Shown piece after piece: positions 15,375-32,405 of a stretch of DNA of 64,000 nt; position 1 is the stretch's first letter, and each line of letters begins with the position of its first letter. The stretch comes from Frankiaceae bacterium (GTDB lineage Bacteria > Actinomycetota > Actinomycetes > JAFAQI01). Position numbers and translations under genes: made by a program. Where the stretch lies: contig JAICMI010000003.1 of assembly GCA_025929315.1 (NCBI GenBank), positions 132-64,131 on the forward strand, read 5' to 3'. The notes under the pieces were generated by a model. That model was not told the origin of the DNA, did no database searches, and saw only the letters and a list, made by a program, of their open reading frames with translations.

Positions 15375-15390
15375 TGTGACGCAGGTCACA
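15375..15390. promoter_or_regulatory. Perfect CRP-type palindrome TGTGA-N6-TCACA
   Basis: TGTGACGCAGGTCACA lies in the 102-bp gap between the cyclase stop and the transporter operon. It is centred about 42 bp upstream of GTG 15425. A GGAGG RBS is at 15413-15417. Confidence 0.55.
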
Positions 15391-15424
15391 CCCTGCGCGC
15401 CGCCGTCCGACCGGAGGCCGACTC

Positions 15425-17236
15425 GTGCCCAGCAACCCCCTGCTCGGGAAGTTCGGACCGCTCGTCCTTCTCGCTGTCGTCCAACTCGTGCTGGTGCTCG
15501 CCGCACCGTCCACGGCACCAACCGCCAACAGTGCCAGTGCGCTGTCGCCGTACGGCACGACCAGTGACGGGACGGTGGCAGGCCCCGCCGGCAGCGCTGC
15601 AGTGCCGGGCGCGGCCACGACAGCCGCGGGCCCGGCCGGCACCGTGGCGGGCGGCTCGTCCGCTGCCGGCGGCGCCGTGGTCGCCGGTGGCGCGCGCGGC
15701 GGCCAGAGCGCGGGAGGCGCAGTGGCCGGAGTAGGTGGCGACACCTCGCACTGCGTCAACGGGCGGCAGTTCGACCCGTCGATCGACTACTTCGCTCCGC
15801 CGTGCGTCCCCGGCGCACTCGGCGCCGCCAACGTGAACAACGGCGGCGCGACCTGGCCGGGTGTCACCGACAAGCAGATCGAGCTGGTCGTCTATGTCGC
15901 GGACTACGGCGCCGAGGTCGACCAGATCCTCAAGGCACAAGGTCTCTACTACAACGCGAGCGACGCAAAGACGTGGAACGCGGCGTACGCCAAGTTCATC
16001 AACTCGCACTACCAGCTCTACGGCCGGTCGTTGCACGTCGACACCGTGCAAGGTGGCTGCCGCACCGTGCCGCCGGACTACCCGTGCCTCATCAAGGACA
16101 TGGACTCGATCGTCGCCAAGTACCACCCCTACGGCGTCCTGTGGGACACAACGGTCTGCTCGGCCTGCTTCGCCGAGCTGTCGCGCCTACATGTCGTCAA
16201 CTTCGGCGGCAGTGGATTCTCCGACGCGTTCCACAACGCCAACATGCCTTACTCGTACGACGCCGGTGAGTCCTCGACGCGCATCGAGCTCGGCCTCGCG
16301 CAGTGGTGGTGCAACCAGATGACGAGCCAAGGGGGCTCGGGCCGAACAGCGATCTTCGCCGGTGACCAGAACCGGGCTGAGGACTTCCGCAAGAGACCGC
16401 GCGTGCTCGGTGTCATCAGCACCAACGACCCGGACAACGAGGACACCGTCAAGAAGGTCCTCTATCCCGCGCTGCAGAAGGGTTGCGGCGAGCAGGTCAA
16501 GCACGAGTACTTCTACGCCCAGGACATCAACACCGCGACGCAACAGTCACAGGCGGCAGCCGCGGCGATGAACACGCCGAACAGCCCGGCAACGAGCGTC
16601 GTCTGCTTGTGTGACCCCGTCGCCCCGCAGTTCGGTCAGAACGCGTTCGCCACGGACAACTACTGGCCCGAGTCGATCATGGCCAGTGATCAGACGATGG
16701 ACTGGGACTCCAACGCCCAGACCTACTCCCAAGGCGGGCAGAGTCCAGGACTTTCGTGTCCCAACCCGGGCAAGGGCTGTCCGTGGGACAACGCCATCGG
16801 TCTCGGCGCCGAGGGCGCGCAGGAGAACCCCAACAACATGCCCGCCGTCAAGGTCTATCGACTCGCCAGTGGCCAGAAGGGACTGCCCAAGAACGGGCAA
16901 CCACCGGCGCTGACGATCGTCTGGGCCAACCTCAGCATGTTCGCCAGCCTCATCGAGAACACCGGCCCGCTGCTGACCCCCGCCCGCATGCAGGCCGCTG
17001 CCCCTCATATGGGCTTGCGCGGCGGCGGCAGGACCGGCCACGAGCAGCGCGGGTTCGACGGCAGCAGCTGGTGCTGGACGCAGGACTTCCGCGTTGCCTA
17101 CTGGGACAAGAACAGGAAGAGTCCCTTCAACGGTGAGAACGGCACTTACGTCTCGATCGAAGGGCAGCGGTTCACCCTCGGCCACTTCCCGAGGATCAAC
17201 CAGCCGCCGGCTCCTGTCGCCGCCAACCGTTCATGA
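15425..17236 (+). CDS. Membrane-anchored, Cys-rich periplasmic-binding-protein-like protein (ABC cassette 1, component 1)
   Basis: 603 aa. An N-terminal hydrophobic helix is followed by about 90 aa of Ala/Gly/Ser/Thr linker and then a globular domain. GVTDKQIELVV resembles the LivK-type SBP N-terminus. Paralogue of 30077..31780. ATGA overlap with the permease gene. Confidence 0.75.
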   Translation: MPSNPLLGKFGPLVLLAVVQLVLVLAAPSTAPTANSASALSPYGTTSDGTVAGPAGSAAVPGAATTAAGPAGTVAGGSSAAGGAVVAGGARGGQSAGGAVAGVGGDTSHCVNGRQFDPSIDYFAPPCVPGALGAANVNNGGATWPGVTDKQIELVVYVADYGAEVDQILKAQGLYYNASDAKTWNAAYAKFINSHYQLYGRSLHVDTVQGGCRTVPPDYPCLIKDMDSIVAKYHPYGVLWDTTVCSACFAELSRLHVVNFGGSGFSDAFHNANMPYSYDAGESSTRIELGLAQWWCNQMTSQGGSGRTAIFAGDQNRAEDFRKRPRVLGVISTNDPDNEDTVKKVLYPALQKGCGEQVKHEYFYAQDINTATQQSQAAAAAMNTPNSPATSVVCLCDPVAPQFGQNAFATDNYWPESIMASDQTMDWDSNAQTYSQGGQSPGLSCPNPGKGCPWDNAIGLGAEGAQENPNNMPAVKVYRLASGQKGLPKNGQPPALTIVWANLSMFASLIENTGPLLTPARMQAAAPHMGLRGGGRTGHEQRGFDGSSWCWTQDFRVAYWDKNRKSPFNGENGTYVSIEGQRFTLGHFPRINQPPAPVAANRS

Positions 17237-19428
17237 GCGGCTACGGGTTGACCGTTCCGCCGTCGTTCAGCAGCGCGGTGGATCGCGTCACCGCACTGGC
17301 CAGCAGTGACCGGCGAGCCGCTCTTTACGGCCGCCGGGCGCTGCTGTCGCTCGCCTTCGTGTTCGCGGTCGACAAGGTTTTCGGACTGACGCCGTTCTTG
17401 TTCGTCAACGGGCTCGCTCTCGGCGCGCTCTACGGCATCATCGGCGTGGCCCTGGTGCTCACCTATCGCACCAGCCGCATCATCAACTTCGCCGCGGCCG
17501 CGGTAGGCGCCGTACCCGCCATCACAGCGGTGCTCTTGTCGACGGCCGACCACGTCAACTACTTGCTGACGATGCCGATCGCGATCATCGGCGGTCTGCT
17601 CAGCGGCGCGCTCACCGAGATCTTCGTACTGCGTCGGTTCAGGACTGCGTCTCGGCTGATCGTCACCGTGGTGTCGATCGGCATTGCGCAGTCCTTCGCG
17701 GCTCTCGGGTTCTTCATCCCGGTGTGGTTCGGCGAGAGGGCGACCGGGGTGCCCAAGGTGGCGACGCCTTGGCAGAACCTGCAGTACCACAACTCCCGCG
17801 GTGAGCCGATCCTGACCGGCAACCAGGTCTTCGCGTTTGCGATGGTGCTGCTGCTGACGTTCGGCCTGATGATCTTCCTGAAGCGCAGCCGGATGGGCAT
17901 TGCCCTGCGCGCGTCATCGGAGAACAGTGACCGAGCCGCGCTGCTCGGCGTACCGGTCAACCGCGTCAACACGATTGCCTGGGCGCTCGCGGGACTGATG
18001 TCGGCGATGGCGATCTTCGCGATCGCTCCTTTGTACGGCGTCCCCAGCGACGCGACGCTCGGCTACGACACGCTGCTCTACGGCCTCGCAGCCGCGGTCG
18101 TGGCCCGGATGGAGAACCTCGGCCTCGCCCTGCTGATGGGCCTGGGCATCGGCCTGCTCATCGACACATCCGTCGCCCACACCGGGACCAACGACATCGC
18201 GCAAGCGTTGATGCTGCCGGTGATTCTCGTATCACTGCTCACACAACGGCGATCACGATCACGAGCAGTCGACGCCAACGCGTCGAGCTGGCAGACCATC
18301 AGCGTCTTCCGGCCGATTCCGCTGGAGCTGCGCGCGCTGCCCGAGGTGCAGCGCATGCGCATGGCCCTTTTCGCCGTCACTGCGGGCGTTGCGATCGGGC
18401 TGCCTTACTTCGTGAGCGACGCCACGATGCCCGGCCTGCAGATCCTGCCGATCATCGGCCTCATCGCGGTCTCGCTGGTCATCCTCACCGGCTGGGCCGG
18501 GCAGATCAGTCTCGGGCAGTACGGGCTGGTCGGCATCGGCGCTGCCGCAGCCGGCGGCCTGATCGGGCGGCACAACATCGACTTCTTCGCCGCTATCGGC
18601 ATCGGGATCGCTGCCGGCGCGATCACCGCCGTGATCATCGGCCTGCCGGCCGTCCGGATGCAGGGTCTCTACCTGGCGGTGACCACGCTCGCGTTCGGTT
18701 ACGCGATGCAGTTCTACGTTCTCAACAGTCACTACTGGATCGGGCGGCATCTGCTGCCGGACCAGCTGGCGGCGAGCATCCGCCGGCCGATGCTCTACGG
18801 CAAGTTCGCACTCGAAGGCAGCCGTGGTGGCGAACGCGCCTTCTACTTCCTGTGTCTCGGTTTTCTGGTGCTCGGACTCGCCGCTGCGGCGTCGTTCCGT
18901 CGTCAGCACAGCGGACGCATGCTCATCGCGCTCCGGGACAACCAACGGGCGGCGTCGTCCTACGCGATCGCACCGGTCCGGACCCGACTGTCCGCCTTCG
19001 CCATCTCGGGAGGTTTCGCAGGTTGCGCCGGCGTGCTGTTCGCCTACCAACAGCACCAGGTGCTGCCCGGGACCTACGACGTCTACAGCGCGATCGCGTT
19101 GTTCCTGGCTGCAGCTGTCGGTGGCCTCGGGTCACTCGCGTTCGGCACGCTGTCGGTCGTCGCGTTCCAGGCGACGATCCTGTGGGGACCGATGGCCTGG
19201 CACCACCTCGGGAACACGTTCTCGTCGGTGGTCCCGTTGCTGCTGACGGGCCCGCTGCTCGTGCTCAACCTCTACGCCAACCCCGGCGGCCTGGCCGGAT
19301 GGGCGTTCGCCAAGCGCGACGACTGGCTGCGCGGGCTGGCGGACCGGCACAGGATTCACGTTCCCTCTCTCGTCGCCGACAGCCTCGTCGAGGAAACCCG
19401 CATGCCCGAACCGGAGCTGGCGAAGTGA
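17233..19428 (+). CDS. Branched-chain-amino-acid-type (HAAT) ABC permease, fused LivH-like + LivM-like halves
   Basis: 731 aa. N-terminal half: LALGALYGIIGVALVLTYRTSRIINFA. C-terminal half: SLVILTGWAGQISLGQYGLVGIGAAAAG. Confidence 0.9.
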   Translation: MSGYGLTVPPSFSSAVDRVTALASSDRRAALYGRRALLSLAFVFAVDKVFGLTPFLFVNGLALGALYGIIGVALVLTYRTSRIINFAAAAVGAVPAITAVLLSTADHVNYLLTMPIAIIGGLLSGALTEIFVLRRFRTASRLIVTVVSIGIAQSFAALGFFIPVWFGERATGVPKVATPWQNLQYHNSRGEPILTGNQVFAFAMVLLLTFGLMIFLKRSRMGIALRASSENSDRAALLGVPVNRVNTIAWALAGLMSAMAIFAIAPLYGVPSDATLGYDTLLYGLAAAVVARMENLGLALLMGLGIGLLIDTSVAHTGTNDIAQALMLPVILVSLLTQRRSRSRAVDANASSWQTISVFRPIPLELRALPEVQRMRMALFAVTAGVAIGLPYFVSDATMPGLQILPIIGLIAVSLVILTGWAGQISLGQYGLVGIGAAAAGGLIGRHNIDFFAAIGIGIAAGAITAVIIGLPAVRMQGLYLAVTTLAFGYAMQFYVLNSHYWIGRHLLPDQLAASIRRPMLYGKFALEGSRGGERAFYFLCLGFLVLGLAAAASFRRQHSGRMLIALRDNQRAASSYAIAPVRTRLSAFAISGGFAGCAGVLFAYQQHQVLPGTYDVYSAIALFLAAAVGGLGSLAFGTLSVVAFQATILWGPMAWHHLGNTFSSVVPLLLTGPLLVLNLYANPGGLAGWAFAKRDDWLRGLADRHRIHVPSLVADSLVEETRMPEPELAK

Positions 19429-21047
19429 GCGCATTGTTGACGTGTCGCGGAGTCGACGTCGCCTACGACAAGGTGCAGGTGCTGTTCGGCGTCGACCTCG
19501 ACGTGCACGAAGGCGAGATCGTCGCACTGCTCGGCACCAACGGCGCGGGCAAGTCGACGATGCTCAAGGCGATCTCGGGCCTCGTGCAACCCATTGCGGG
19601 ACACATCGAGTTCGACGGGCGAGACATCACCAAGTGCACGCCGCAGGAGACAACCGCGCTGGGCATCGTGCAAGTACCGGGCGGCAAGGCCGTCTTCCCG
19701 ACGTTGACCGTCGCGGAGCACTTCAAGGCCGGGTGCTGGCTCTATGCGAAGCAGTCCAACGACGAGGTGGCGCAGCGCACCGCCAAGGTCATCGAGATGT
19801 TCCCGCGGCTGCAGGAACGCTGGAACCAGCTGGCGGGCGACCTGTCCGGCGGCGAGCAGCAGCAGCTCGCACTCGGCATGGCGTTCGTCGCGCGGCCGCG
19901 GCTTCTCGTCATCGACGAGCTGTCGCTGGGTCTCGCTCCGGTCATCGTCGAGCGGTTGCTCGACGCCGTACGCGCTATTCATGCCGAAGGTGCGACGGTC
20001 GTTCTCGTCGAGCAGTCGGTCAACGTCGCACTGACCATTGCCACGCGCGCCTACTTCATGGAGAAGGGCCAGGTGCGGTTCGAGGGCCCGACTACGGATC
20101 TCCTCGCCCGGGACGATGTCCTGCGTTCGGTGTTCCTCGCCCGTGCCAACCACAGTCTTGACAGCAAGAGCAAGAACGGCCAGGCCCGCACTCGCTCGCG
20201 CGCCAGGAAAGCTGCCGAGACAGTGGCCCGGCCGGAGGCGCTGGCGGTGCGCCACCTCAGTCACACCTTCGGCGGCATCTCCGCGGTCAACCAGGTGACC
20301 TTCTCGGTCCACGCCGGCGAGATCCTCGGGCTGATCGGACCGAACGGCGCCGGCAAGACCACGATCTTCGACATCATCTCGGGCCATCTGCCGACGCAGC
20401 GCGGTCACATCGTCCTGGGTGACAAGGACATCAGTCACTGGGCGCCGGAACGACGCGCCGCGGCGGGTCTCGGGCGCTCATTCCAGGACGCGCGCATCTT
20501 CCCGTCGCTGACCGTCGCCGAGAACATCGCGCTGGGACTTGAACGACACATCGCCGTGCGCGACCACGTGTCGGCGTTGTTCGGCACCCCCGCCATCCGC
20601 GAGTCCGAGATGGACGTTGCCTTCACCGTGGGCGACTTGATCGAGCTGATGGGGCTGGGTGCGTTCCGCGACAAGTTCGTCGCCGAGCTCTCGACGGGCT
20701 CGCGCCGCATCGTCGACCTGGCGATGTCGATCGCACACGACCCGGCCGTGCTGCTGCTCGATGAGCCGTCCAGCGGCATCGCACAGAAGGAGACCGAGGC
20801 GCTCGGTCCGTTGCTGCAGCGCATTCGCGAGGAGACGGGTTGCGCGATGCTCGTCATCGAGCACGACATGCCGCTCATCACCTCGCTGTCGGACTCGATC
20901 GTCGCGCTCGACCTCGGCGCCGTACTCGTTCAAGGGCCGCCGGAACGCGTGCTCGCGGACGAACGGGTGGTCACCGCCTACCTGGGCGGCGATCCCGCAA
21001 CGATCCGGCGCAGCACCGCACGTGAAGCAGAAAAGGTGGGGGCCTGA
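19425..21047 (+). CDS. ABC ATPase, two fused cassettes (LivF-like then LivG-like)
   Basis: 540 aa from GTG 19425 (GTGA overlap with the permease stop). Two Walker A motifs (GTNGAGKST, GPNGAGKTT), two LSGGEQQ/LSTGSRR signatures and two Walker B motifs are present. The ORF-track ORF 18852..21047 has a spurious N-terminal part. Confidence 0.9.
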   Translation: MSALLTCRGVDVAYDKVQVLFGVDLDVHEGEIVALLGTNGAGKSTMLKAISGLVQPIAGHIEFDGRDITKCTPQETTALGIVQVPGGKAVFPTLTVAEHFKAGCWLYAKQSNDEVAQRTAKVIEMFPRLQERWNQLAGDLSGGEQQQLALGMAFVARPRLLVIDELSLGLAPVIVERLLDAVRAIHAEGATVVLVEQSVNVALTIATRAYFMEKGQVRFEGPTTDLLARDDVLRSVFLARANHSLDSKSKNGQARTRSRARKAAETVARPEALAVRHLSHTFGGISAVNQVTFSVHAGEILGLIGPNGAGKTTIFDIISGHLPTQRGHIVLGDKDISHWAPERRAAAGLGRSFQDARIFPSLTVAENIALGLERHIAVRDHVSALFGTPAIRESEMDVAFTVGDLIELMGLGAFRDKFVAELSTGSRRIVDLAMSIAHDPAVLLLDEPSSGIAQKETEALGPLLQRIREETGCAMLVIEHDMPLITSLSDSIVALDLGAVLVQGPPERVLADERVVTAYLGGDPATIRRSTAREAEKVGA

Positions 21048-22198
21048 TGAGCGACGGACGACACCGCGCGCCACGCACGCGGCTTAATGTTCTGCAGCGC
21101 ATAGGGGCAGCAGCGGTTCTGCTCGGCGCCGGCGGCTTGGGCGCGGCGATGTGGCCGACGGCGGCCGCCGCGGACGCGCCGGTGCAGACCGCTTGGTACA
21201 ACGCGTTGTCCGGTGGCGGTCAAGCTGTCCCCGACCCGGCGACCCCGGCCGGCGGCTTGCACGTCTCGGTTGCCTCCGGACAGGTCCTCGCCTTCGCGGC
21301 GATGCAGTACGCCCTCGCCGAAGGCTCGACGGCCACCATCGAGCTCAAGATCAGCAACCTCACCGCGACGCCCGTCATCAACCCGACCTCGCCGACCACC
21401 GACCCCGCCGCCTACGTCGTTGCCTGTCCGATCAGCGGCACGTGGACGGCCGGGGACGACCAGCCGATGGACGCGGCGCCGAAGTACGACTGCACTCGCT
21501 CGATTCCCGGCAACCTGTCCTCCGACCAGACGACGTTGACCTTCCTCGCGGACGCCTCGATCGAAACCCTGCCGGGTCAGCTCAGTCTCGCGATCGTGCC
21601 TGTTGTCACCGATGAGATCCCCGGTGTCGGGACGCCGGCCCCGGCGGACACCACCCAGCCGTTCTCGCTCGACGTCGCCAAGCCGGATGCCTCATCGCTG
21701 ATCGTCACGGGCACATCGGCCCTGCCACCACCACCGGCGCCGCCGAAGACGGCCACGACGGGCGCCACGTCCACGGCGACGAAGGGATCGGCCGCCGGTG
21801 CCGGTGCAAGCAGCGGGTCGTCGAGCGTCAACCTTCCGGGCTCGCTGACCAGCAACTCGGCGTCGACGTCGACGGACGCCGGCACGAGCCCGGTCGTCGC
21901 GCCGACCAACCAGGCGCCGGCGGCCGCCCCGGCCGCCGCGACGTCATCCACGAACGACCGTGCGCACAACGTGGCACTCGCGATGCTCCTGCTGATCGGC
22001 ATCGGCGTCGTCGGGATGAGCAGCGGTCAGATGCAGCGAGCGCCGCGGCTGCTCGGCGGCGCGGGGCGTCACGCCGCAATGACCACCGGTGCAGCCGCAG
22101 CGGCAACGGCCGCTGCAGTTCCGGTGGGCGTCTACGGCAACCGAGGCCTCGGCCGCTTCAACAAACCCCGCACCGAACCCGCCCGCCCCCTCACCTGA
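21047..22198 (+). CDS. Secreted, C-terminally membrane-anchored Ala/Pro/Ser/Thr-rich protein, unknown function (cassette 1, component 4)
   Basis: 383 aa. Signal-like N-terminus (AAAVLLGAGGLGAAMWPTAAAADA), then a conserved globular region (AWYN, VVAC), a low-complexity tract, a TM helix (VALAMLLLIGIGVVGMS) and a basic tail (RGLGRFNKPR). Paralogue of 23852..24943. Its start overlaps the ATPase stop by 1 nt. Confidence 0.7.
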   Translation: MSDGRHRAPRTRLNVLQRIGAAAVLLGAGGLGAAMWPTAAAADAPVQTAWYNALSGGGQAVPDPATPAGGLHVSVASGQVLAFAAMQYALAEGSTATIELKISNLTATPVINPTSPTTDPAAYVVACPISGTWTAGDDQPMDAAPKYDCTRSIPGNLSSDQTTLTFLADASIETLPGQLSLAIVPVVTDEIPGVGTPAPADTTQPFSLDVAKPDASSLIVTGTSALPPPPAPPKTATTGATSTATKGSAAGAGASSGSSSVNLPGSLTSNSASTSTDAGTSPVVAPTNQAPAAAPAAATSSTNDRAHNVALAMLLLIGIGVVGMSSGQMQRAPRLLGGAGRHAAMTTGAAAAATAAAVPVGVYGNRGLGRFNKPRTEPARPLT

Positions 22199-22203
22199 AC
22201 ACG

Positions 22204-22265
22204 GTTGAGTGCGACGTTTTGTACCTTGCAATAGCCGTTGAGAGGTACGAAACGTCGCACTCAAC
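22204..22265. terminator. Bidirectional hairpin terminator between convergent operons
   Basis: GTTGAGTGCGACGTTTTGTACCT (22204-22226) pairs with AGGTACGAAACGTCGCACTCAAC (22243-22265). This gives a 23-bp stem with one G-U pair and a 16-nt loop. It sits in a locally AT-rich 72-bp gap between stop 22198 (+) and stop 22271 (-). Confidence 0.7.
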
Positions 22266-22270
22266 AATGG

Positions 22271-23842: not shown

Positions 23843-23851
23843 GGGTGTCCT

Positions 23852-24943
23852 TTACAGATGCGGAGCGGGGCCAACGCGTTCGCGGCGAAAGCGTCCCACT
23901 CCGCCCGAGCCTGCCGCGGCAGCGCCCCGGCCACTGCTGCCACGGTCGGGTGCGCGCAGCCTGCCACCTGCGAGTGCGGTCGCCGCTGTCGCGGGCGCCG
24001 CGACGGGCGCGCGGTTGCGCATCAGCAACGCGTAACCCAGGACCTCGGCCGCGATGACGATAAAGGCGATGATCCGGCGGTCGCCAGTGCTGAGGCCGGA
24101 CGACGTCGTCGCTGCCGCCGGCTGTGCAGCAATCGGCTGACCGGACTGGTCCCCTGCGACCACAGGCGCTACATCGGTCGTGGGTGACGTCGTCGTACCA
24201 CTGCCGGGCAGCGCACCTGACACAGCCGAGGGTGGATTGGCAACGGCGGTGCCGCCGACGGGAGCAGTGCCTGAGCTGCCCGCACCGCCACCAACGGGCG
24301 TGGAACCGGTTCCGGCGCCGAACGATGGTGCAGCCGCGCCGACGCCGCCGCTGTCCTTGACCGCCAACGTGCTGTCGTTCGGTGGCTTGAACACCACCCG
24401 GTCGACCGGGCCGGGCAGGAGCACCACTTGGAGCTTGTTGTGCAGCACCAGCTTGGCAACATCGCTGAAAACGACGTCAGTGCCTTTGAGCTTGCCGGGC
24501 ACGCAGGCGTTGCCGTCGTAGGGCGGTACATGTGACCACGGCCCGTTGTCGTCGGAGGTGAACGTCTCGGTTGCCCGGCACGCGACCACGGAGACCTGCG
24601 GCGGCGCCGTCCCGTCGATCGCGAGGGTCAGGGCGCCGACGAGTGACGACGGCGGCAGCTCGAATGAGACTCCCGCAACCGCCTGACTGCCCGCGGGCGC
24701 CGTACCCAGCACGCTGGGGATCGGTGCCGGGTTGGAGCCCTGCACCAGCAGGTCGCCTTGCTTGACGTCCGGCGGTGCCGGTGGCACCGGCGCGGGATCA
24801 CCGAGGTTGGCCGCGTTCCACCATGCGCTGACGTCCGGTGCCTGAGCCACCACCGGTGACGGCGCGATGAACATGACAGCCGCCACCGTGCTCGACGACA
24901 GGAGACCGAGCGCGACAAAGCGACGGGCGAGCTTCGACCTCAT
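23852..24943 (-). CDS. Secreted, C-terminally membrane-anchored protein, unknown function (cassette 2, component 4)
   Basis: 363 aa. Signal-like N-terminus (FVALGLLSSSTVAAVMFIAPSPVVAQA), then AWWN and VVAC motifs, a Gly/Ala/Thr/Ser-rich tract, a TM helix (IIAFIVIAAEVLGYALLM) and a basic tail (GGVGRFRRER). ATGA overlap with the ATPase gene. Confidence 0.7.
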   Translation of the reverse strand: MRSKLARRFVALGLLSSSTVAAVMFIAPSPVVAQAPDVSAWWNAANLGDPAPVPPAPPDVKQGDLLVQGSNPAPIPSVLGTAPAGSQAVAGVSFELPPSSLVGALTLAIDGTAPPQVSVVACRATETFTSDDNGPWSHVPPYDGNACVPGKLKGTDVVFSDVAKLVLHNKLQVVLLPGPVDRVVFKPPNDSTLAVKDSGGVGAAAPSFGAGTGSTPVGGGAGSSGTAPVGGTAVANPPSAVSGALPGSGTTTSPTTDVAPVVAGDQSGQPIAAQPAAATTSSGLSTGDRRIIAFIVIAAEVLGYALLMRNRAPVAAPATAATALAGGRLRAPDRGSSGRGAAAAGSGGVGRFRRERVGPAPHL

Positions 24944-27852
24944 GTGCTCACCTTCGCAGTCCCCGACCGTTCGATCGCCGACCGGTCGGTCCCCAGGTAA
25001 GAACCCACCACGAGCGGATCCTCGAGCACCTTGTCAGGCGGGCCGGAGCAGATGACACGCCCTTGGTCGAGTGCCATCAGTCGGTCCGAGATCGACGAGA
25101 TCAACGGCATGTCGTGCTCGATGACCAGCAACGCGCAACCGGTCTCGTCACGGATCTGCCGCAGCAACGGGCCGAGTGCCTCGGTCTCGCGCTGGGCGAT
25201 GCCACTGGACGGTTCGTCGAGGATGAGTACGGCGGGGTCATGCGCGAGCGCCATCGCGATGTCGACGACTCGACGCGATCCGGTCGACAGCTCACTCACA
25301 AACTTGTCACGGAACGCGCCCAGACCCATGAGATCGACCAGGTCCGCGACGGACCAGGCGATGTCGTCCTCCTGCTCGCGCGCCGCGGGAAGACCGAGCG
25401 CACATGCGGCATGGTCACGAATCGTAAGGTGTCGCTCGAGCGCAGTGGCCAGGTTCTCGGCGACCGTGAGCGACGCGAAGATGCGCGCGTCCTGGAACGA
25501 CCGACCCAGACCCATGCGAGCGCGCGCATCCGGCGGCAGGTCGGTCACGTCGTAGTCGCCGAGCAGCACCTGTCCCCGCGTGGGCGCCTGGAAACCGGAA
25601 AGGACGTCGAACAACGTCGTCTTGCCGGCCCCGTTGGGCCCGATCAGCCCGAGGATCTCTTTGTCAGTGACCGCGACGTCGACCTCGTCGAGTGCTCGGA
25701 TCCCGCCGAACGTGACCGAGACGGCCTTGGCCTCGAGCAGCTTGGGTCGTTCGAGGTCGGCGATCGCCTCCTTCGTACGACGAGTGCGTGTCGTCGCCTT
25801 CGCTCTGGGCGCGGACTTCTTCGTGGCGCCGGCCAGGAAGATCGAGCGCATGACGTCATCGCGGTTGAGGAGATCGGCGGTGGGGCCGGAGAACCGCACC
25901 TCCCCCTTCTCGAGGAAGTAGGCGCGGTCCGCGACGGTCAGCGCGACGTTGACCGACTGCTCGACGAGCACGACGGTCGTGCCCTGGGCGTTGATCTCGC
26001 GCACGGTGTCGAGCAGCTGCTCCACGATCGTCGGTGCGAGACCGAGCGAGAGCTCGTCGATGAGCAACAGTCGTGGCTTGGTGATGAATGCCATGCCGAG
26101 GGCGAGCATCTGCTGCTCGCCGCCGGAGAGGTTGCCCGCGAGCTGACCGCGGCGTTCGCGCAACCGCGGGAAGCGCGTCAGCACGCCGTCGATCTCGCGC
26201 TGCGCGGTGGCCTTGTCGGTGATCAGCCAGGAGGCGACCTCGAAGTGCTCGTCGACGGTCAGGGTCGGGAACACACCCTTGCCGCCGGGCATCTGTGCGA
26301 TCCCGTGCTTGGCCGATGTCACGGCGTCGGCATGTGTCACGTCGACGCCGTCGAACAGCACCACACCACCGGTCGGGTCGACCAGGCCTGTGATCGCCTT
26401 GAGCAGCGTCGACTTGCCGGCCCCGTTGGTGCCGAGGAGAGCGACGATCTCGCCGCGGTGCACTTCGAAGTCCACCCCGAACAGGACCTGCACGCCGTCG
26501 TAAGCGACGGTCACGCCCTGGCAGTGCAGCAGGATGTCGTCCTGCGCACCGTCGAGCCGCTGCTGGCGCACCTTGGTGATGAACGCGAGCGAGTCGAGCG
26601 CCGCCTGTGCATCACGGCCCACAAATCGGCTCGCGGTTGCGAGGATCGTGCCGCCGATGATCCAGAACGGCGCAGTCGCGCCAAAACCGATCCGGATGCC
26701 GTGGTCGTCGGCAATGGACGAGACCGGAAGGATGATGAACAGCACCCACACGCCGGCCACCAGGAACAAGAACGACCAGGCGAATGACAACGACCGCACC
26801 CGGGCCGGAGAGACGAACGCTTGAGTCATGAAGAACGGCGGTGTGAACATGCCGCCGACGAACGATGCGAGCAGCGTCATCACGACAGCCGAGGCAAGGT
26901 TGGGCATCGCGCACAGGACGGGGATGAGGATCCCGACACCGACAAGTGAGATCCCAGCCCACTTGATCGGCTCACCGAGACTGCGCCGCACCAGAACCTG
27001 CGTCCACCTGCCGGACACCAGGATGCCGGCAAACGCTGCGGCACCGTTTGCGGCAACGACGATGCCGCGACCCAGCTCCCCGAGCCCGAAAGCGTCGTGA
27101 AGCAGGATCGGCACATAGAAGGCGAGCGGGATGAAGCCCGCGCCGATGAAGAAGAACGCGCTGAACTGCCGCTTGAGCGTGGGTACGGCGAAGAGCGTCC
27201 GCCGCGCCTCTCCGAACGGAATCGGGGCCTCCCGCGCCGCCACCTCCGCAGCAGTCGGGTCGTCCGTCTCACCGCGCATCGGTTCGCGCAACCGGAGACT
27301 AACGAGGGCGGTGATCAGGATCGGGACGATGAGGACCATGAAGGCAACGCGCCAGCTGGTCTGCCACGCGACCACACCGGCGACGGCCGGCCCGGCGATG
27401 TAGGCGGCTCGCTCGGAGAACCGATGCACGGTGTAGACGGCGGGTCGGTCCTTCGGCAGGTAGTAGTCCGACAGCAGCGACGAGTGGATCGGGTCGTTGA
27501 CGACGCGGCCGATGCCGTTGCCGAGTCGGAAGAAGACCAGAGCGACCAGCCCGTAGGCGAAACCGGTGAGGAAGGAGAACAGGCCCGCGAGGAGCGCGCC
27601 GATCGTCACGAACCACTTACGTGGCAAGCGGTCGCCGTAGTAGCCGAGCGGGACCGCCGCCAGCAGCACCACTGACAGGTTGGCGATGACCAGGATGCCG
27701 AAGGCCCGGTCGGTCAGATGGAACGCGGCCTGGATGTTGGGCGCCAGGACGGCGAACGCGGCGCTGTCCCACTCGTCGAAGAAGAACAGCAGCGACAGGA
27801 TCATGAGCGGGAACAGCGGCAGCCCGCTGGTCAACCGCCGCAACCCGTTCAC
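24940..27852 (-). CDS. Tripartite fusion: 12-TM MFS-like domain + LivF-like + LivG-like ABC ATPase cassettes
   Basis: Single uninterrupted 970-aa ORF. Residues 1 to about 430 carry about 12 hydrophobic helices with MFS-like motifs (GYYGDRLPRKW, FFRLGNGIG). From about residue 445 come two full ABC cassettes (GTNGAGKST ... LSGGEQQ; GPNGAGKTT ... LSTGSRR). GTGA overlap with the permease stop. Confidence 0.85.
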   Translation of the reverse strand: MNGLRRLTSGLPLFPLMILSLLFFFDEWDSAAFAVLAPNIQAAFHLTDRAFGILVIANLSVVLLAAVPLGYYGDRLPRKWFVTIGALLAGLFSFLTGFAYGLVALVFFRLGNGIGRVVNDPIHSSLLSDYYLPKDRPAVYTVHRFSERAAYIAGPAVAGVVAWQTSWRVAFMVLIVPILITALVSLRLREPMRGETDDPTAAEVAAREAPIPFGEARRTLFAVPTLKRQFSAFFFIGAGFIPLAFYVPILLHDAFGLGELGRGIVVAANGAAAFAGILVSGRWTQVLVRRSLGEPIKWAGISLVGVGILIPVLCAMPNLASAVVMTLLASFVGGMFTPPFFMTQAFVSPARVRSLSFAWSFLFLVAGVWVLFIILPVSSIADDHGIRIGFGATAPFWIIGGTILATASRFVGRDAQAALDSLAFITKVRQQRLDGAQDDILLHCQGVTVAYDGVQVLFGVDFEVHRGEIVALLGTNGAGKSTLLKAITGLVDPTGGVVLFDGVDVTHADAVTSAKHGIAQMPGGKGVFPTLTVDEHFEVASWLITDKATAQREIDGVLTRFPRLRERRGQLAGNLSGGEQQMLALGMAFITKPRLLLIDELSLGLAPTIVEQLLDTVREINAQGTTVVLVEQSVNVALTVADRAYFLEKGEVRFSGPTADLLNRDDVMRSIFLAGATKKSAPRAKATTRTRRTKEAIADLERPKLLEAKAVSVTFGGIRALDEVDVAVTDKEILGLIGPNGAGKTTLFDVLSGFQAPTRGQVLLGDYDVTDLPPDARARMGLGRSFQDARIFASLTVAENLATALERHLTIRDHAACALGLPAAREQEDDIAWSVADLVDLMGLGAFRDKFVSELSTGSRRVVDIAMALAHDPAVLILDEPSSGIAQRETEALGPLLRQIRDETGCALLVIEHDMPLISSISDRLMALDQGRVICSGPPDKVLEDPLVVGSYLGTDRSAIERSGTAKVST

Positions 27853-30074
27853 AACTTGCTCCCGGTTGTGCTGCTCACCCGGCGCGACTCGGTCGCGACG
27901 CCCACCTTCTTGACGTGGTCGGCAGCCGAGCGCAGCACGGCCTGGTCGGCCGACTCGTCGTGCTCGGCATCGACCCGCGAGTCGGCGACGAGGCTTGGCA
28001 CATGGATGCCGTGTCGGGCCGCGAGCCAGCGTAGGAGGCCGTCGCGCGCCTGCTGGGCGGCTTGCGCGAGACCACCAGGGAACACCAACAGCACGATGGA
28101 GACACCGACACCGCTGGCCAGGACGCTCAGCTTTGCGTTGCCGAAATAGCCGATGGCGGTCAGGCCGATCGTGCCGAGCACCGCGCCCGGCAGCGACGTG
28201 AGCCCGCCGACGACGGCATACAAGAACGCGATGAGGCTGATGTCCATCGTGAAGCTCCCAGGGTCGACCTGGGACTGGTAGGCCGAGAGCGCACCGGCCA
28301 GAGCGGCGATGGCGCCGGCGATCGCGAACGCGGACAGACGCGTCACTGTCGCATCGACGCCGAACGCCTGCGCCGCCCGTTGGTTGTCACGCAGCCCGAT
28401 GAAGAGGCGGCCGGACCGGCTGTGACGCAACGACCACGCCGACAGGCAACAGAGCACCAGCATGATGAGACAGAAGTAGTAGAACCGCGTGTCCGACGTG
28501 AGGTCGATGCGGCCGTACAGCATCGGTTTGGTGACGTAGCTGCCGTCCGGCGGCAACAGCCAGCCGAACCGCTCGCGGCTCAGTCCGGCATATTGCACAG
28601 CAGCACCGAAACCCAGGGTGACCACCGCGAGGAACAGACCGGGCACGCGCAGCGCGGGGATGCCGATCAGCACGGCGACGACAGCCCCGGCGACGATCGC
28701 GGCGGCGAGCGTGACGAAGAAGTCCTGGTGGTTGCGCGTCGCCAGCCCGCCTGCCACAGCGGCACCCACGCCGGCGAAGGCGTACTGCCCGAGCGAGATC
28801 TGACCGGCCCAGCCCGAGAGGACCACCAGCGACACCGCGACCATGCCAGCGATCGCCGCCTGCGTACAGAACGCGGCCCGGGACGTGCCCACGATGTAGG
28901 GCGCAGCCAACCCAAGGGCGCCGAGCAGTCCGAGCGCGCCGTAACGAGCACGGTGGATCTCGCGAAGGTGGCGCAGCTCGAGCGGAATGGGCCGGAACTC
29001 CTGCAGCGCCTTGAACGACGCCACGCCGGTGTCGAAGGCGCGTGACATCCGTCGCCGCTGGAAGAGCAACGCCGCGAGGATCACCGGCAGCATGAGGGCG
29101 GCAGCGTCGTCAGGTCGGCTCGAGCCCGCAAACGCGGCCTGCTGGATCATGCCGACGCCGATGCCCGCCGCGAACGCGACCGGCAGGCTCTCCATCCGCG
29201 CGACGACGGCAGCCGCCAGGCCGTAGAGCAGCACCAGCGGCGACACGCTGCCGCCCGCGGGCACCGAGGTCACCGGGGCCTGCAAGTAGACCGCCACGCC
29301 GGAACAAATGCCGGCCAACACCCAGACGATCGTCGACAGCCGGGCGACGGGCACACCGAGCAGCGACGCCCGGTCCGCGTTCTCGGCCGACGCGCGGATG
29401 GCGATGCCGGCGCGGGTGTAGCGCAGGAATGCGGCCAGCCCGGTGCAGATCACGGCCGTCGCGACGACGATCGCGAAGTAGTCGCCGTTGAAGATGATGC
29501 CGCCGATCGTCACCTTGAAGTTGGTGTAGGGCGTCGGGAAGTTGAAGGGCAGGCCCGGCTGACCGCCGATCCACCGCGGCAGGTTGAGCTCGAGGTAGAC
29601 GAAGATCTGCGCGAGACCGATCGTGAACACCGTCGCGATCAGCCGCGGCGAGTTGGTGAACCGACGCATGACCAGCTCGACGACACCCCCGACCAGCGCC
29701 GAGCCGACGAGCATCACCGCGACCGACACCGGATAAGGCCAGTTGCGGTTGGTCACCAGCAAGAGCGCCGTGACAGCAGGGACAAGGCCAAGTCCGGCGT
29801 GGGCAAAGTTGATGATGCGGTTGGCGCGGTAGACGAGGATCAGCCCGAACGCAAGCAATGCGTAGAGCATGCCGAGGATCGCGCCGTTGATGAGGATGCC
29901 GAGCGAGACACCTGTCGGCAGCGGGATGCCGAGTGGGTGTGAGTACTGGGACCGGCCGAACATGAGCTCGAGCAGGAGTGCAAGAGCAAGCGGCCACGCG
30001 ACGTGGATGCTCGCGGTACGCAGCCACCTCGGCACCGTGACGCCGCCGGGCAGCGCCGGAACTAGTGTTGTCAC
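27849..30074 (-). CDS. HAAT-type ABC permease, fused LivH-like + LivM-like halves
   Basis: 741 aa from GTG 30074 (VTTLVPALPGG...), 2 nt after the upstream stop. Contains AILGMLYALLAFGLILVYRANRIINFA and SLVVLSGWAGQISLGQYAFAGVGAAVAG. The ORF-track start at 30290 lies inside the upstream gene. Confidence 0.9.
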   Translation of the reverse strand: MTTLVPALPGGVTVPRWLRTASIHVAWPLALALLLELMFGRSQYSHPLGIPLPTGVSLGILINGAILGMLYALLAFGLILVYRANRIINFAHAGLGLVPAVTALLLVTNRNWPYPVSVAVMLVGSALVGGVVELVMRRFTNSPRLIATVFTIGLAQIFVYLELNLPRWIGGQPGLPFNFPTPYTNFKVTIGGIIFNGDYFAIVVATAVICTGLAAFLRYTRAGIAIRASAENADRASLLGVPVARLSTIVWVLAGICSGVAVYLQAPVTSVPAGGSVSPLVLLYGLAAAVVARMESLPVAFAAGIGVGMIQQAAFAGSSRPDDAAALMLPVILAALLFQRRRMSRAFDTGVASFKALQEFRPIPLELRHLREIHRARYGALGLLGALGLAAPYIVGTSRAAFCTQAAIAGMVAVSLVVLSGWAGQISLGQYAFAGVGAAVAGGLATRNHQDFFVTLAAAIVAGAVVAVLIGIPALRVPGLFLAVVTLGFGAAVQYAGLSRERFGWLLPPDGSYVTKPMLYGRIDLTSDTRFYYFCLIMLVLCCLSAWSLRHSRSGRLFIGLRDNQRAAQAFGVDATVTRLSAFAIAGAIAALAGALSAYQSQVDPGSFTMDISLIAFLYAVVGGLTSLPGAVLGTIGLTAIGYFGNAKLSVLASGVGVSIVLLVFPGGLAQAAQQARDGLLRWLAARHGIHVPSLVADSRVDAEHDESADQAVLRSAADHVKKVGVATESRRVSSTTGSKL

Positions 30075-30076
30075 GT

Positions 30077-31780
30077 TCAGACCGAGGGGGGCATGTTCGG
30101 CTCGCCCTTGGGGATCTGGTTGACCTGGTAGCGCCGGCCGCCGTTCAGCGGCACGTAGGCGCCGTTGCGCCCGTTGGTCGTCGACTTCCTGCTGGTGCTG
30201 TAGTAGACCTCGCGGATGTCGGAGATCCCGGTGTAGTCGTTCTTGCCGAACTTGACGTAAAACAGCGACGGGTCGTGCCACTTGGCCCACTCGTCATATC
30301 CCGGCGTGGTGAGCATGCCGTATTCATACGTCAGCGGCGTCAGCTTGGGACCGGCCGCCATGATGCCGCCGGACAGCGTGAGGAAGTAGGTCGTCAACAG
30401 GTTGGCGTTGGCGTTGGGGTTACCGGACTTGCCCTCGGCCTTCCAGATCCTGCCTGCGTCGGTCTGACCGATGGGCTTCGTCGTACCGAGGTCCGACGGC
30501 CCGAACGCGTGCGCCCACTCCGACTGGTCGTAGGTCTGCGCCAGCGCGTCGTAGTCGAGCAGGCCGCCACCGGCGATGACGTTCTCCGGGTACCAGTTCT
30601 GCGACGCTGCTGCTTTAGTCCCGTACGCCGGGGCTATGGGGTCGGCCATCCACAGTGCCGTTGTGGCACCGGCGGCCTTGTACTTCGACACGTTGGTCGT
30701 CGACTGCTGCGCCGCTGTCGCCGTGTTGGACGAGTAGGGACCGTCGACGACTGCACTTGAACCGGCACAGCCCTTGATGATGCTTTCGAGGTGGTGCGCT
30801 GCCGGCGTCGTTGTCGCAGTGTCCGGGTAGATGACCACGACCTTGCGCGTCTTGGTCTTGAGCGACGCCTGACCCGCGAACCGCGCCGGCTTGCCGGCCA
30901 ACCGGTTGCAGTACCACGTGCCCGTGATCTGGGCCTGGGTGTCGCCGCCCATGAACAGGTCGTAGTGGTAGGGCCGCAGGCTGTCGTCGAACGAGTCGGA
31001 GAAGCCCCAGCCGCCCCAGTTGACGACGCCCTTGCGCGACAGCTCATCGTGGAACGCCGGCTCGTTCGTGTTGCTCGCGTAGAACAACGCGAACGGGTGG
31101 TAGTTGGAGACGAGGCTGTCGGCATCGCTGCGGAAGCACGAGTCGACGGGCGGTGCGATGTCGCAGTTGCCGTGAACGTAGATCGGCACGATCTTGCGGC
31201 CATAGAGCTGGTAGTGCTTGTTGATCCAGTCGGCCACCAGCAGGAACTGCTGCTTCTCCGCGTCCGGCGGGGTGTAAGTACCTGTCTCTCGCAGGATGGC
31301 GTCGACCGCCGCGTTGTCCTTCGGGCGATACATGATGACCTTGATCGTCGTGGAGGTCACACCGGCCCAGGTGGCGCCGCCGTTGTCCCCGCCCGCCCAG
31401 GTGGCGACGCACGGCGGGTGCTCGTTGAGGCCGGTGATGCAGAACGGCTTGCCGGTCGTCGTGCCGCTCGCCGGGGGTGCCACCCCGCGTTGCTTGGCGG
31501 CAGTGCCGCCGCTGGCGCCGACCGGCGTCGTACCGGTGGAACCGACCGAGCCCGGCGTGCTTGACGAGCCACCCGCGGCACCGGGCGTCGTCGCACCGGG
31601 TGCCGTCGCACCGGGAAGCGTCGGAGCGGACGACGACTGCGCGGCCGGCGAACCTCCGCTGAACTGACCGCCGATCGGTCCGTTGGCCGACGACCCACCC
31701 TTGGACGGGGCGACGACCACCAGCACGATCTGCGCCATCACGAGCAGAGCGAACGGCGCATATCGACGAAGTCCGGTCAC
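30077..31780 (-). CDS. Membrane-anchored, Cys-rich periplasmic-binding-protein-like protein (cassette 2, component 1)
   Basis: 567 aa, GTG start preceded by GGAGGG. An N-terminal helix (FALLVMAQIVLVVVAPS) is followed by about 100 aa of low-complexity linker. GVTSTTIKVIMY, INKHYQLYGRK and VVNWGGWGFSDSF align by eye with 15425..17236. Confidence 0.75.
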   Translation of the reverse strand: MTGLRRYAPFALLVMAQIVLVVVAPSKGGSSANGPIGGQFSGGSPAAQSSSAPTLPGATAPGATTPGAAGGSSSTPGSVGSTGTTPVGASGGTAAKQRGVAPPASGTTTGKPFCITGLNEHPPCVATWAGGDNGGATWAGVTSTTIKVIMYRPKDNAAVDAILRETGTYTPPDAEKQQFLLVADWINKHYQLYGRKIVPIYVHGNCDIAPPVDSCFRSDADSLVSNYHPFALFYASNTNEPAFHDELSRKGVVNWGGWGFSDSFDDSLRPYHYDLFMGGDTQAQITGTWYCNRLAGKPARFAGQASLKTKTRKVVVIYPDTATTTPAAHHLESIIKGCAGSSAVVDGPYSSNTATAAQQSTTNVSKYKAAGATTALWMADPIAPAYGTKAAASQNWYPENVIAGGGLLDYDALAQTYDQSEWAHAFGPSDLGTTKPIGQTDAGRIWKAEGKSGNPNANANLLTTYFLTLSGGIMAAGPKLTPLTYEYGMLTTPGYDEWAKWHDPSLFYVKFGKNDYTGISDIREVYYSTSRKSTTNGRNGAYVPLNGGRRYQVNQIPKGEPNMPPSV

Positions 31781-31802
31781 GTGAGTCCCTCCGAGGGCTG
31801 GA

Positions 31803-32405
31803 TCAGAGCACGTTCAGCAAGTTGGACACGAGGGTGTAGATGGCCTGCTCGGTCTCCTCGACGGTGAAGCCGAGCTCCCCCCGCAGCGACTCCCAGGTGG
31901 ACCAGGTCGTGGCCACCTGCAGTGCTGCGAAGACCGATCGTCGCGACCCGGCCGGCTGCGCCGAGAGCTCGGACCCTACGACGCGTTCGAGCTGCTCGCG
32001 TGCTGCGTCCAGCAGCCGGTCCCGGTTGCGCCGGACCTGCGGTGAGAACGGCTCCTGCAGCCGCGCGGCCCGCCACACGGGCGCGAGGGCTTCGTACATC
32101 TGCCCGCGCTGTTCGACGAGCTGACGCAGGCGGTCAGGCAACGGGCCGCCGGCGTCGATCGGCGTGACGTAGCGCAGCGCGATCTCGTAGTCACGCTGGC
32201 CGGCCTCGATGAGCAGCGACTCCAGGTCGTTGAAGTGCTGCCAGACGGTACGAAGTGAGACGCCGGCGCGCTCGGCCACCCGCGGCGCCGTCGGCCGCAG
32301 GTCGCCGTCGTGGTGCAGGGAGCGGAGAGCGTCGACGATCGCCCGCCGAGTACGGGCGGATCGGGCGAGTCGCCCGTCCTGGAGCACAGCCTCCGTTGAC
32401 GCCAC
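31803..32405 (-). CDS. TetR/AcrR-family transcriptional regulator
   Basis: About 200 aa from GTG 32405 (VASTEAVLQDGRLARSARTRRAIVDAL...). HTH region: TAPRVAERAGVSLRTVWQHFNDLESL. It stops 22 nt before the binding-protein gene start. Confidence 0.85.
   Translation of the reverse strand: MASTEAVLQDGRLARSARTRRAIVDALRSLHHDGDLRPTAPRVAERAGVSLRTVWQHFNDLESLLIEAGQRDYEIALRYVTPIDAGGPLPDRLRQLVEQRGQMYEALAPVWRAARLQEPFSPQVRRNRDRLLDAAREQLERVVGSELSAQPAGSRRSVFAALQVATTWSTWESLRGELGFTVEETEQAIYTLVSNLLNVL

Follow-up and report, generated by a model that had tools for sequence, protein, structure and literature searches.

A Conserved Fourth Component in Two Convergent HAAT-Type ABC Transporter Operons of a Frankiaceae Bacterium

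Does a protein that matches no known domain belong to the transporter whose genes it follows, and what would such a transporter carry? The question is raised by a 64,000-nt stretch of DNA from a Frankiaceae bacterium (contig JAICMI010000003.1, assembly GCA_025929315.1; referred to below as the window, with coordinates given as window positions), in which two convergent operons each encode the parts of an ABC pump of the HAAT type together with one further protein. The window has a G+C content of ∼68%, and its nearest relatives are soil metagenome-assembled genomes labeled Frankiales, Frankiaceae, or Mycobacteriales. The components are called here c1 (binding-protein-like), c2 (permease), c3 (ATPase), and c4 (the fourth component), and the suffixes p and m mark the plus-strand and minus-strand copies. 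The c4 family was found to be conserved and genetically linked to HAAT-type pumps. The reading that we favor, and regard as reasonably probable, is that both cassettes are binding-protein-dependent importers of the HAAT lineage (LivHMGF/Urt type), assembled from fused parts, in which c4 serves as an accessory subunit for the uptake of a lipophilic alcohol, ketone, or acid.

Genetic linkage of c4 to HAAT-type pumps

A profile hidden Markov model (HMM) of the c4 N-terminal domain retrieved at least 1,236 c4 clusters at 50% identity (E ≤ 0.001), with 720 at E ≤ 1e-10. Almost all members are 280 to 400 amino acids (aa) long with the domain at residues ∼25 to 195, and all of the c4 loci that were fetched have a G+C content of 65 to 73%. 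The synteny sample consists of metagenome contigs covering two c4 subfamilies and scattered distant members; alignments A3 and A5, used for the related-locus searches, each cover one c4 subfamily. In this sample, c4 adjoined transporter genes in 37 of 38 informative loci, lying directly after a LivF/LivG-type ATPase gene in 36 and after a binding-protein gene in one (L011). The synteny with HAAT transporters in other genomes on which the first-pass annotation of this DNA had staked its case was thus recovered.

Four loci from GTDB representative genomes (L001 to L004) keep the minus-strand cassette in the order TetR-c1-c2-c3(+MFS)-c4-ligase beside genes for a hydrolase and a Baeyer-Villiger monooxygenase (BVMO), with the exceptions that TetR was not detected in L002, that c4 is not one called open reading frame (ORF) in L001, and that the c4 frame is broken in L004. 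The second, convergent operon is also kept in L002 and L004, and orthologs of c4p occupy the same position in L002, L004, L006, and L007. For distant c4 homologs (26 to 38% identity) on long contigs, c4 came directly after transporter genes in all seven loci; the preceding gene encodes a LivF/LivG-type ATPase in six, and in the seventh, L011, it encodes the binding protein and a separate second ATPase gene was not called. A metagenome scan with a different c4 subfamily gave 28 loci, three of them without upstream DNA, and a LivF-type ATPase gene lay immediately upstream on the same strand in 24 of the 25 informative loci, the 25th having only 340 nt upstream. Those 24 loci also carry, farther upstream, a large binding-protein gene, a gene for a permease-ATPase fusion, or both. 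The reverse search from distant c1 homologs gave two complete loci with c4 after the ATPase (c4-profile E values of 2e-35 and 2e-45). Of the nine distant loci that were read gene by gene (L005 to L013), five showed a 4-nt overlap between the c4 start and the stop before it. When PLSDB plasmids were searched by tblastn with c1m, a c4 of another subfamily, and the binding protein of the latter, no match was found.

The linkage between c4 and the pump spans six fusion architectures. With H, M, F, and G standing for the LivH-, LivM-, LivF-, and LivG-type parts, these are separate HM and FG genes; separate HM and FG with an MFS domain on FG; an HM+G fusion, a binding protein, and F; c1, an HM+G fusion, and F; HM+F+G in one 1,301-aa protein; and an M+G fusion, a binding protein, and F. 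The 1,301-aa protein (L013, positions 10662 to 14567 of that locus; BPD_transp_2 plus two ABC_tran domains) is a complete single-chain HAAT translocator and is followed by a c4 with the C-terminal motif described below. A reduced cassette was seen in L005 (positions 5535 to 10987), between secD/secF and relA, where a LivM-type half-permease fused to a LivG-type ATPase (687 aa) is followed by a 521-aa Peripla_BP_6 protein, a LivF-type ATPase, and c4; the LivH-type half was not seen. An apparent ATPase-c4 fusion, P0365, was rejected as a genuine one because its junction reads as a frameshift.

Within the window, the plus-strand cassette consists of c1p (603 aa; 15425 to 17236), c2p (731 aa; 17233 to 19428), c3p (540 aa; 19425 to 21047), and c4p (383 aa; 21047 to 22198). 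The minus-strand operon runs from a gene for a TetR-like regulator (31803 to 32405) through c1m (567 aa; 30077 to 31780), c2m (741 aa; 27849 to 30074), c3m (970 aa; N-terminal third at 26563 to 27852 and C-terminal two thirds at 24940 to 26538), and c4m (363 aa; 23852 to 24943) to an acyl-CoA ligase gene (22271 to 23842). Every ORF named in the first-pass annotation was found where it had been placed, and the gene junctions agreed exactly when start and stop positions were checked. On the plus strand, the c1p stop (17236) and the c2p ATG (17233) form an ATGA overlap, the c2p stop (19428) and the c3p GTG (19425) form a GTGA overlap, and the c3p stop and the c4p ATG overlap by 1 nt at 21047. On the minus strand, a 2-nt gap separates the c1m stop (30077) from the c2m GTG (30074), and the c2m/c3m and c3m/c4m junctions are GTGA (27849 to 27852) and ATGA (24940 to 24943) overlaps, respectively; the gap is 22 nt from TetR to c1m and 9 nt from c4m to the ligase. 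Judged by gene spacing alone, each operon is probably co-transcribed and translationally coupled. Third-position G+C is 0.84 to 0.90 across all genes, and 0.84 in the c4m N-domain, which supports the reading frames, that of the c4m N-domain included.

Sequence comparison indicates paralogy of all four components, far above chance. The identities are 32% for c1p and c1m (over 608 columns, the whole globular part; E = 6e-67), 45% for c2p and c2m (E = 5e-140), 63% for c3p and c3m (E = 0), and 30% over 97 residues for c4p and c4m (E = 2e-7). An HMM built only from c4m-type sequences and run against 338 ORF fragments of the window gave c4p as the single other match (E = 1.4e-13), with a bias correction about as large as the score (45.0 versus 45.4 bits) because of the low-complexity linker. 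These pairwise identities and the HMM match mean that the earlier observation of the same four protein types in the same order in both operons is real. The two components predicted to lie outside, c1 and c4, diverge faster between the paralogs than c2 and c3, which fits specificity-determining roles, as expected for such parts.

Predicted structure of the four components

The AlphaFold model of c4m comprises a signal-peptide-like helix (residues 1 to 34), a beta-sandwich (residues 38 to 197), a disordered linker rich in Gly, Pro, Thr, and Ala (residues 200 to 283), a membrane helix (residues 286 to 309), and a cytoplasmic tail of ∼55 residues. The sandwich is modeled with a pLDDT of >90 over most of residues 90 to 200. 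In c4p, a signal peptide, a beta-sandwich, a low-complexity linker, and a transmembrane segment (residues 309 to 327) are likewise predicted, and its tail ends in GLGRFNKPRTEPARPLT. The c4 protein is thus modeled as a single-pass protein whose beta-sandwich lies outside and is joined by a long flexible linker to one helix that leads into a short cytoplasmic tail. Transmembrane predictions agree with the AlphaFold models for the topology of both c4m and c1m. Features conserved across the c4 family include AWW-N-x-x-N-x-G at the mature N terminus, GDLLVQGSN, an invariant Cys122 with a second cysteine nearby, and LLPG-x-x-DRVV. The tail is conserved as well, with GRLRPPDR and, at the extreme C terminus, G-[VIL]-G-R-F-x-x-E-R-x-G-x-x-P-x-L; the corresponding stretches of c4m are GRLRAPDR and GVGRFRRERVGPAPHL. 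This C-terminal peptide is shared by several subfamilies and is found in c4p, L007, L012, L013, P0365, P0432, and P0433. Neither Pfam nor NCBIfam gave a match for c4 (E ≤ 10), and the c4 profile found only noise in the PDB. The sole significant Foldseek match of the c4m model was a chondroitin-sulfate carbohydrate-binding module, 8wab (E = 1.5e-4, TM score of 0.58, 12% identity), a weak match that points to a jelly-roll-like sandwich and to no function or ligand.

The c1 proteins were not recognized by sequence. Pfam and NCBIfam gave no match for c1p or c1m, even at E ≤ 10; with Peripla_BP_6 (PF13458), the gathering threshold was not reached and nothing matched at E ≤ 10, and a precomputed PF13458 match is present in some distant c1 relatives only. 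No PDB chain was found with c1m as a single sequence or with a 62-sequence c1 profile at E ≤ 1. The AlphaFold model of c1m (mean pLDDT of 83, with 354 residues above 90) has an N-terminal helix at residues 8 to 23, which is the predicted transmembrane segment, a disordered linker at residues 23 to 92, and an alternating beta/alpha globule from residue ∼105 to the end (residue 567). A Foldseek comparison of this model with the PDB returned 571 matches (E ≤ 0.001), with HAAT binding proteins in all of the top places (E of ∼1e-12, target TM scores of 0.67 to 0.75), led by 4eyg, 4n0q, 4ey3, and 4n03. These structural neighbors bind vanillate, 4-hydroxybenzoate, p-coumarate, leucine, urea, and fatty acid, and are only 10 to 14% identical to c1 in the structural alignments. 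The type I periplasmic binding fold that had been suggested for component 1 was therefore borne out at the level of the model. The plus-strand protein, assigned by its homology to c1m, has one N-terminal transmembrane segment (residues 10 to 28). At 520 to 610 aa in the cassette family, c1 is ∼100 residues longer than a canonical binding protein, with six invariant cysteines and a near-invariant N-terminal helix (RRYAPF...Q...PS). The six cysteines, together with Cys122 of c4 and the cysteine near it, were counted in favor of an extracytoplasmic location. As modeled, c1 is a very divergent, helix-tethered protein of the type I receptor fold located outside the membrane, and its role is likely that of substrate receptor.

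The remaining two components were readily placed by profile searches. Both c2 proteins have BPD_transp_2 (PF02653) in two stretches, with c2p at E = 1.3e-44 and c2m at E = 4.4e-55 and scores of 152.8 and 187.2 bits, respectively, against a cutoff of 26.8 bits, and c2p has ∼15 hydrophobic segments. The N-terminal half is closest to the NCBIfam models of UrtB and LivH and the C-terminal half to those of LivM and UrtC, at scores (∼70 bits) far under the UrtB, UrtC, LivH, and LivM equivalog cutoffs of 250 to 379 bits; for c2m, a sequence search of the PDB gave no solved relative. The C terminus of c2m, presumably cytoplasmic, carries the conserved motif RHGIHVPSLVADS, which could be where the ATPase or the c4 tail docks. 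The motif R-H-x-[IL]-H-V-P-S-L-[VL]-A-D ends every stand-alone fused permease (window positions 28004 and 19357; L001, L002, L004, and L007). In c3p and in residues ∼439 to 970 of c3m, two ABC_tran domains are followed by BCA_ABC_TP_C, which scores 27.8 bits in c3p and 21.8 bits in c3m, above and below the 25.5-bit cutoff, respectively. The N-terminal ATPase half is UrtE/LivF-like and the C-terminal half UrtD/LivG-like, the best NCBIfam models being UrtE, UrtD, LivF, and LivG, and the halves exceed the curated cutoffs for UrtE (321.7 versus 285.8 bits) and UrtD (312.7 versus 304.1 bits). On these matches, c2 can be assigned as a LivH-LivM translocation pathway and c3 as a LivF-LivG motor.

The 970-aa c3m protein had been called an ATPase in the first-pass annotation, which is right for its LivF/LivG-type double ATPase but leaves unstated the MFS domain fused in front of it (residues 1 to 430). 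An MFS_1 search had nevertheless been proposed there, and it matched, as did those for BPD_transp_2 and ABC_tran in both copies. The MFS_1 (PF07690) score is 109 bits against a cutoff of 33.4 bits, with residues 19 to 363 covering profile positions 1 to 339 of 347, and at least nine hydrophobic segments were counted when hydropathy was scanned by a simple method. The best PDB match is a Spinster homolog, 6e8j (E = 3.9e-9), followed by Spns1, EfpA, and EmrB. Matches to family models are weak and mixed, with aromatic-acid/H+ (AAHS) and ACS-type symporter models among the nearest. The MFS-ATPase fusion is kept in L002 to L004 and in L006, and a longer upstream ORF in L001 is consistent with it; it is found neither in the plus-strand copy nor in most family members.

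Gene context and the candidate substrate

The ligase gene that closes the minus-strand operon encodes a FadD-like protein (AMP-binding, E = 5.7e-82, plus AMP-binding_C) whose best NCBIfam model is long-chain-fatty-acid--CoA ligase PRK06187 (421 bits, under the 476-bit cutoff). The ligase gene is kept after c4m in L001 to L004 and ends the minus-strand operon in five of the five genomes seen. At the other end of the unit, the TetR-like gene (its ORF stays open to 32489) gave a TetR_N match of E = 1.5e-4 and 21.9 bits, just under the 24-bit Pfam cutoff, and weak ScbR and BetI matches in NCBIfam. Its position and size fit the TetR family, and orthologs occur at the same place in L001, L003, and L004. 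No inverted repeat of ≥10 nt was found in the intergenic region between the TetR and hydrolase genes or upstream of c1p. Divergent from the TetR-like gene lies a plus-strand operon (32492 to 35945), assigned by Pfam and NCBIfam, for an alpha/beta hydrolase (32492 to 33421), a type I BVMO/FMO-like monooxygenase (33418 to 34908), and a Zn alcohol dehydrogenase (34905 to 35945), with 4-nt overlaps at the junctions; the hydrolase-BVMO pair adjoins the cassette in L001 to L004. Such a trio converts a secondary alcohol to a ketone, the ketone to an ester or lactone, and the latter to an acid. The co-transcribed ligase could activate the acid from this route.

Genes for an acyl-CoA dehydrogenase, an enoyl-CoA hydratase, and a WS/DGAT protein are also nearby in the window, and other family members lie beside thiolase, methylmalonyl-CoA mutase, P450, Rieske oxygenase, CoA-transferase, AMP-binding, WS/DGAT, patatin, or sterol-type genes. 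For instance, L009 adjoins Rieske-oxygenase, P450, CoA-transferase, and AMP-binding genes. Given the TetR-like and ligase genes in the operon, the divergent dehydrogenase, BVMO, and hydrolase genes, and the lipid and CoA neighbors of the family, we infer for the minus-strand system a lipophilic substrate (an alcohol, ketone, lactone, or carboxylic acid) and not an amino acid. In L012 (positions 5472 to 16246), a cassette of the form c1-[permease+ATPase]-ATPase-c4 is flanked by genes with sterol-enzyme domains resembling those of eukaryotes, namely EBP (emopamil-binding protein/sterol isomerase), FA_hydroxylase, and 3-beta-HSD, neighbors that hint at sterol-type substrates in some family members.

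The plus-strand operon is preceded, 102 nt upstream of c1p, by a gene for a class III nucleotidyl cyclase (14246 to 15322, plus strand; Pfam Guanylate_cyc, E = 1.4e-11). The cyclase gene is kept in L002, where it adjoins the c1p ortholog, and it is possibly co-regulated with the operon. Cyclic-nucleotide signaling genes flank the locus as a whole: an EAL-domain phosphodiesterase gene (13025 to 14254, minus strand) and the cyclase gene on one side and, right after the alcohol dehydrogenase gene on the other, one for a cNMP-binding protein (35953 to 36405, minus strand).

Between the convergent stop codons lies a hairpin (22204 to 22266) with a perfect 23-bp stem and an inner 4-bp stem. Folding (ΔG of −49.1 kcal/mol against an average of −19.3 for shuffles; z = −10.4) agrees with the earlier statement that the two operons converge on one shared hairpin. 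No T-run follows the stem on either strand, and a scan for the terminator consensus found nothing; tract-less hairpin terminators are reported in Actinomycetota. The hairpin is not conserved in the syntenic L002 locus, where only a 12-nt remnant (GTCGCACTCAAC) stands at the same place, and it may have been gained recently as a palindromic element, not kept as a conserved terminator. That it is a repeated element was rejected, as the window holds no copy beyond its own two arms.

Elsewhere in the window, two plus-strand ORFs of 631 aa (36577 to 38472) and 538 aa (6679 to 8295), with good codon bias and third-position G+C of 0.85 and 0.88, gave no Pfam or NCBIfam match, and the end of the 631-aa gene overlaps the convergent WS/DGAT gene (38469 to 39839) by 4 nt. 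Three pirin-family genes occur within the 64 kb, two as divergent neighbors (4280 to 5227 on the minus strand and ∼5280 to 5993 on the plus strand) and the third at 41608 to 42564. This last is followed by a cell-wall and development cluster typical of sporulating actinomycetes (42567 to 50881), with genes for a SpoIID/fn3/CWB2 protein, two LytR-CpsA-Psr paralogs, a GT2 glycosyltransferase, a DUF3048 protein, and an SsgA-family protein.

Proposed working, known systems, and rival explanations

If the cassettes are importers of a lipophilic substrate, c1, tethered outside by its N-terminal helix and long linker, would deliver the substrate to c2. As an accessory subunit, c4 may aid the capture or hand-over of a poorly soluble substrate outside; alternatively, its tail may couple the outside to the ATPase, or its helix and conserved tail may stabilize or regulate the complex. 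In the minus-strand copy, the MFS domain on the motor would provide a further route, taken by a related amphipathic anion; amphipathic organic anions are what its distant likeness to Spinster and AAHS proteins suggests. The plus-strand copy would take up a different, though related, substrate. Tentatively, and with considerable doubt, we also raise a bolder version. Here c4 would be a new class of obligatory ABC-importer accessory subunit whose stalked sandwich, with c1, captures poorly soluble substrates and whose tail docks on the ATPase or the permease tail, linking events across the membrane. The MFS-fused forms would then be hybrid secondary/primary transporters, and the family would provide widespread lipophile uptake, unrelated to Mce, in uncultured soil Actinomycetota.

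Several observations weigh against the picture of a c4-assisted lipophile importer. The receptor role of c1 rests on its predicted fold, the sequence-level Peripla_BP_6 tests all fail, and the only structural match of c4 is weak. One large c4 subfamily lacks the C-terminal motif and has short GRRRPGE tails instead, so that any coupling through the tail would not be universal. Some family members sit in housekeeping neighborhoods without lipid genes (L005, beside secDF-relA, L007, and L013), and therefore the substrate class may differ between members. Finally, the plus-strand operon has no catabolic neighbors of its own, the cyclase apart.

Comparison with known systems places the cassettes within the HAAT importers (TC 3.A.1.4: LivJHMGF, BraCDEFG, and UrtABCDE), with which they share LivH/LivM-type BPD_transp_2 permeases, LivF/LivG-type ATPases with a BCA_ABC_TP_C tail, and a type I (cluster B) binding-protein fold. 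Membership in this lineage is indicated by sequence for the permease and ATPase and by the predicted fold for the receptor, whereas the gene context suggests a substrate class other than hydrophobic amino acids, urea, or related small solutes. The cassettes differ from these importers in the fused permeases, the fused ATPases (in F-G order), the MFS domain that fronts one copy, the receptor, which is anchored by a helix on a long linker and is missed by the Peripla_BP_6 profile, the extra conserved single-pass c4, and a context of lipid and CoA genes in place of amino-acid or urea genes. Among the top structural neighbors of c1 are binding proteins of Rhodopseudomonas palustris HAAT importers (CouPSTU; 4eyg, 4ey3, 4evs, 4f8j, and 4jb0) and the fatty-acid binder 4n03 of Thermomonospora curvata. 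Those HAAT systems import organic acids that are later activated to CoA esters. However, the R. palustris and T. curvata binding proteins are ∼360 to 390 aa long, soluble or lipoproteins, and recognized by Pfam, and the systems have no c4-like partner and no MFS fusion. The closest functional analogy that we can propose for c4 is MmpS with MmpL. MmpS is a small single-pass protein of Actinomycetota with an extracytoplasmic beta-sandwich, encoded beside the lipophile transporter MmpL and needed by it. The analogy is one of logic only: c4 gave no sequence or fold match to MmpS in profile, PDB, and Foldseek searches, the MmpS helix is N-terminal whereas that of c4 is C-terminal after a cleavable signal peptide, the partner of MmpS is an RND pump and that of c4 an ABC pump, and MmpS has no conserved cytoplasmic C-terminal peptide.

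The first-pass annotation had found no characterized transporter to match. This stands insofar as no named family for the cassette was found in Pfam, NCBIfam, or the literature searched, which also held no published description of the c4 family or of the cassette; the nearest published candidate, CamABCD, was compared by description only. CamABCD (ro04888-ro04885) of Rhodococcus jostii RHA1 is a four-gene ABC re-importer of steroid-acid metabolites that acts alongside the MFS transporter CamM (PMC8399759, PMC6498646), and both act on lipophilic carboxylic acids that are then CoA-activated (PMC8399759, PMC6678751). On that description, the module could already be characterized, as a member of the CamABCD family: the latter too is a four-gene actinobacterial importer for lipophilic carboxylates that works alongside an MFS transporter, and the neighbors of L009 and L012 are of the oxygenase/CoA and sterol types. 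We think this rather doubtful, as no plasmid record matches c1m, the c4 of another subfamily, or its binding protein, neither Pfam nor NCBIfam has a model or a name for the c4 family, and CamABCD is only presumably of the HAAT type. The RHA1 MFS gene is separate and lies elsewhere (ro05792), whereas the MFS domain in the window is fused to the ATPase.

A more familiar explanation is that the cassettes are HAAT-type importers with the usual amino-acid, urea, or amide substrates, that the lipid-type neighbors are coincidental, and that c4 is dispensable. It gains from the ATPase halves that exceed the UrtE and UrtD cutoffs, from the leucine binders and the urea binder among the top structural matches of c1, and from the several family members in housekeeping contexts. 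We nevertheless judge it unlikely: the permease halves fall far short of the UrtB, UrtC, LivH, and LivM cutoffs, c1 is unrecognized by every amino-acid or urea binding-protein model, binders of aromatic and fatty acids are among its best structural matches, and the ligase closes the minus-strand operon in every genome seen. It is likewise improbable, in our estimate, that c4 is no transporter subunit at all but a co-transcribed, merely co-regulated surface protein on a stalk that binds the wall or a polymer. Its position after the transporter genes is invariant over six architectures and deep divergence reaching 26 to 35% identity, start/stop overlaps are frequent, and a conserved cytoplasmic C-terminal peptide would be needless for mere surface display, even though the only fold resemblance of c4 is to carbohydrate-binding modules and a long Pro/Thr/Gly-rich stalk is typical of surface-displayed domains. 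Least credible to us is an envelope-lipid flippase, exporter, or recycling machine in which the MFS and ABC parts move amphipathic lipids and the ligase re-activates freed fatty acids. To our knowledge, import is the direction of every characterized BPD_transp_2 system with a type I binding protein. The MFS domain does have the lipid transporters Spns and EfpA as its best PDB sequence relatives, a WS/DGAT gene is nearby, and a few family members lie in housekeeping or cell-envelope neighborhoods (UbiA, PspC, and PIG-L). However, the MFS matches are weak (E of 4e-9 at best) and equally close to aromatic-acid symporters, and neither the plus-strand copy nor most of the family has the fusion.

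On the reading that these are HAAT-derived importers of lipophilic compounds, the family bears on how such compounds enter Actinomycetota, in which Mce systems are the main known route for hydrophobic and lipid-derived compounds. The label "branched-chain amino acid transporters" is given to HAAT pumps as a matter of routine, and metagenome annotation probably extends it wrongly to the pumps described here. What emerges is a sizeable family, so far in high-G+C soil contigs, that has a divergent tethered receptor, an unannotated accessory protein, and varied fusions and is often found among CoA and lipid-catabolic genes. It raises the question of what a single-pass beta-sandwich partner adds to an ABC importer with a type I receptor. 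The c4 protein is a new domain family to be defined, and the pumps are candidates for the engineered uptake of ketones, esters, and fatty or steroid acids.

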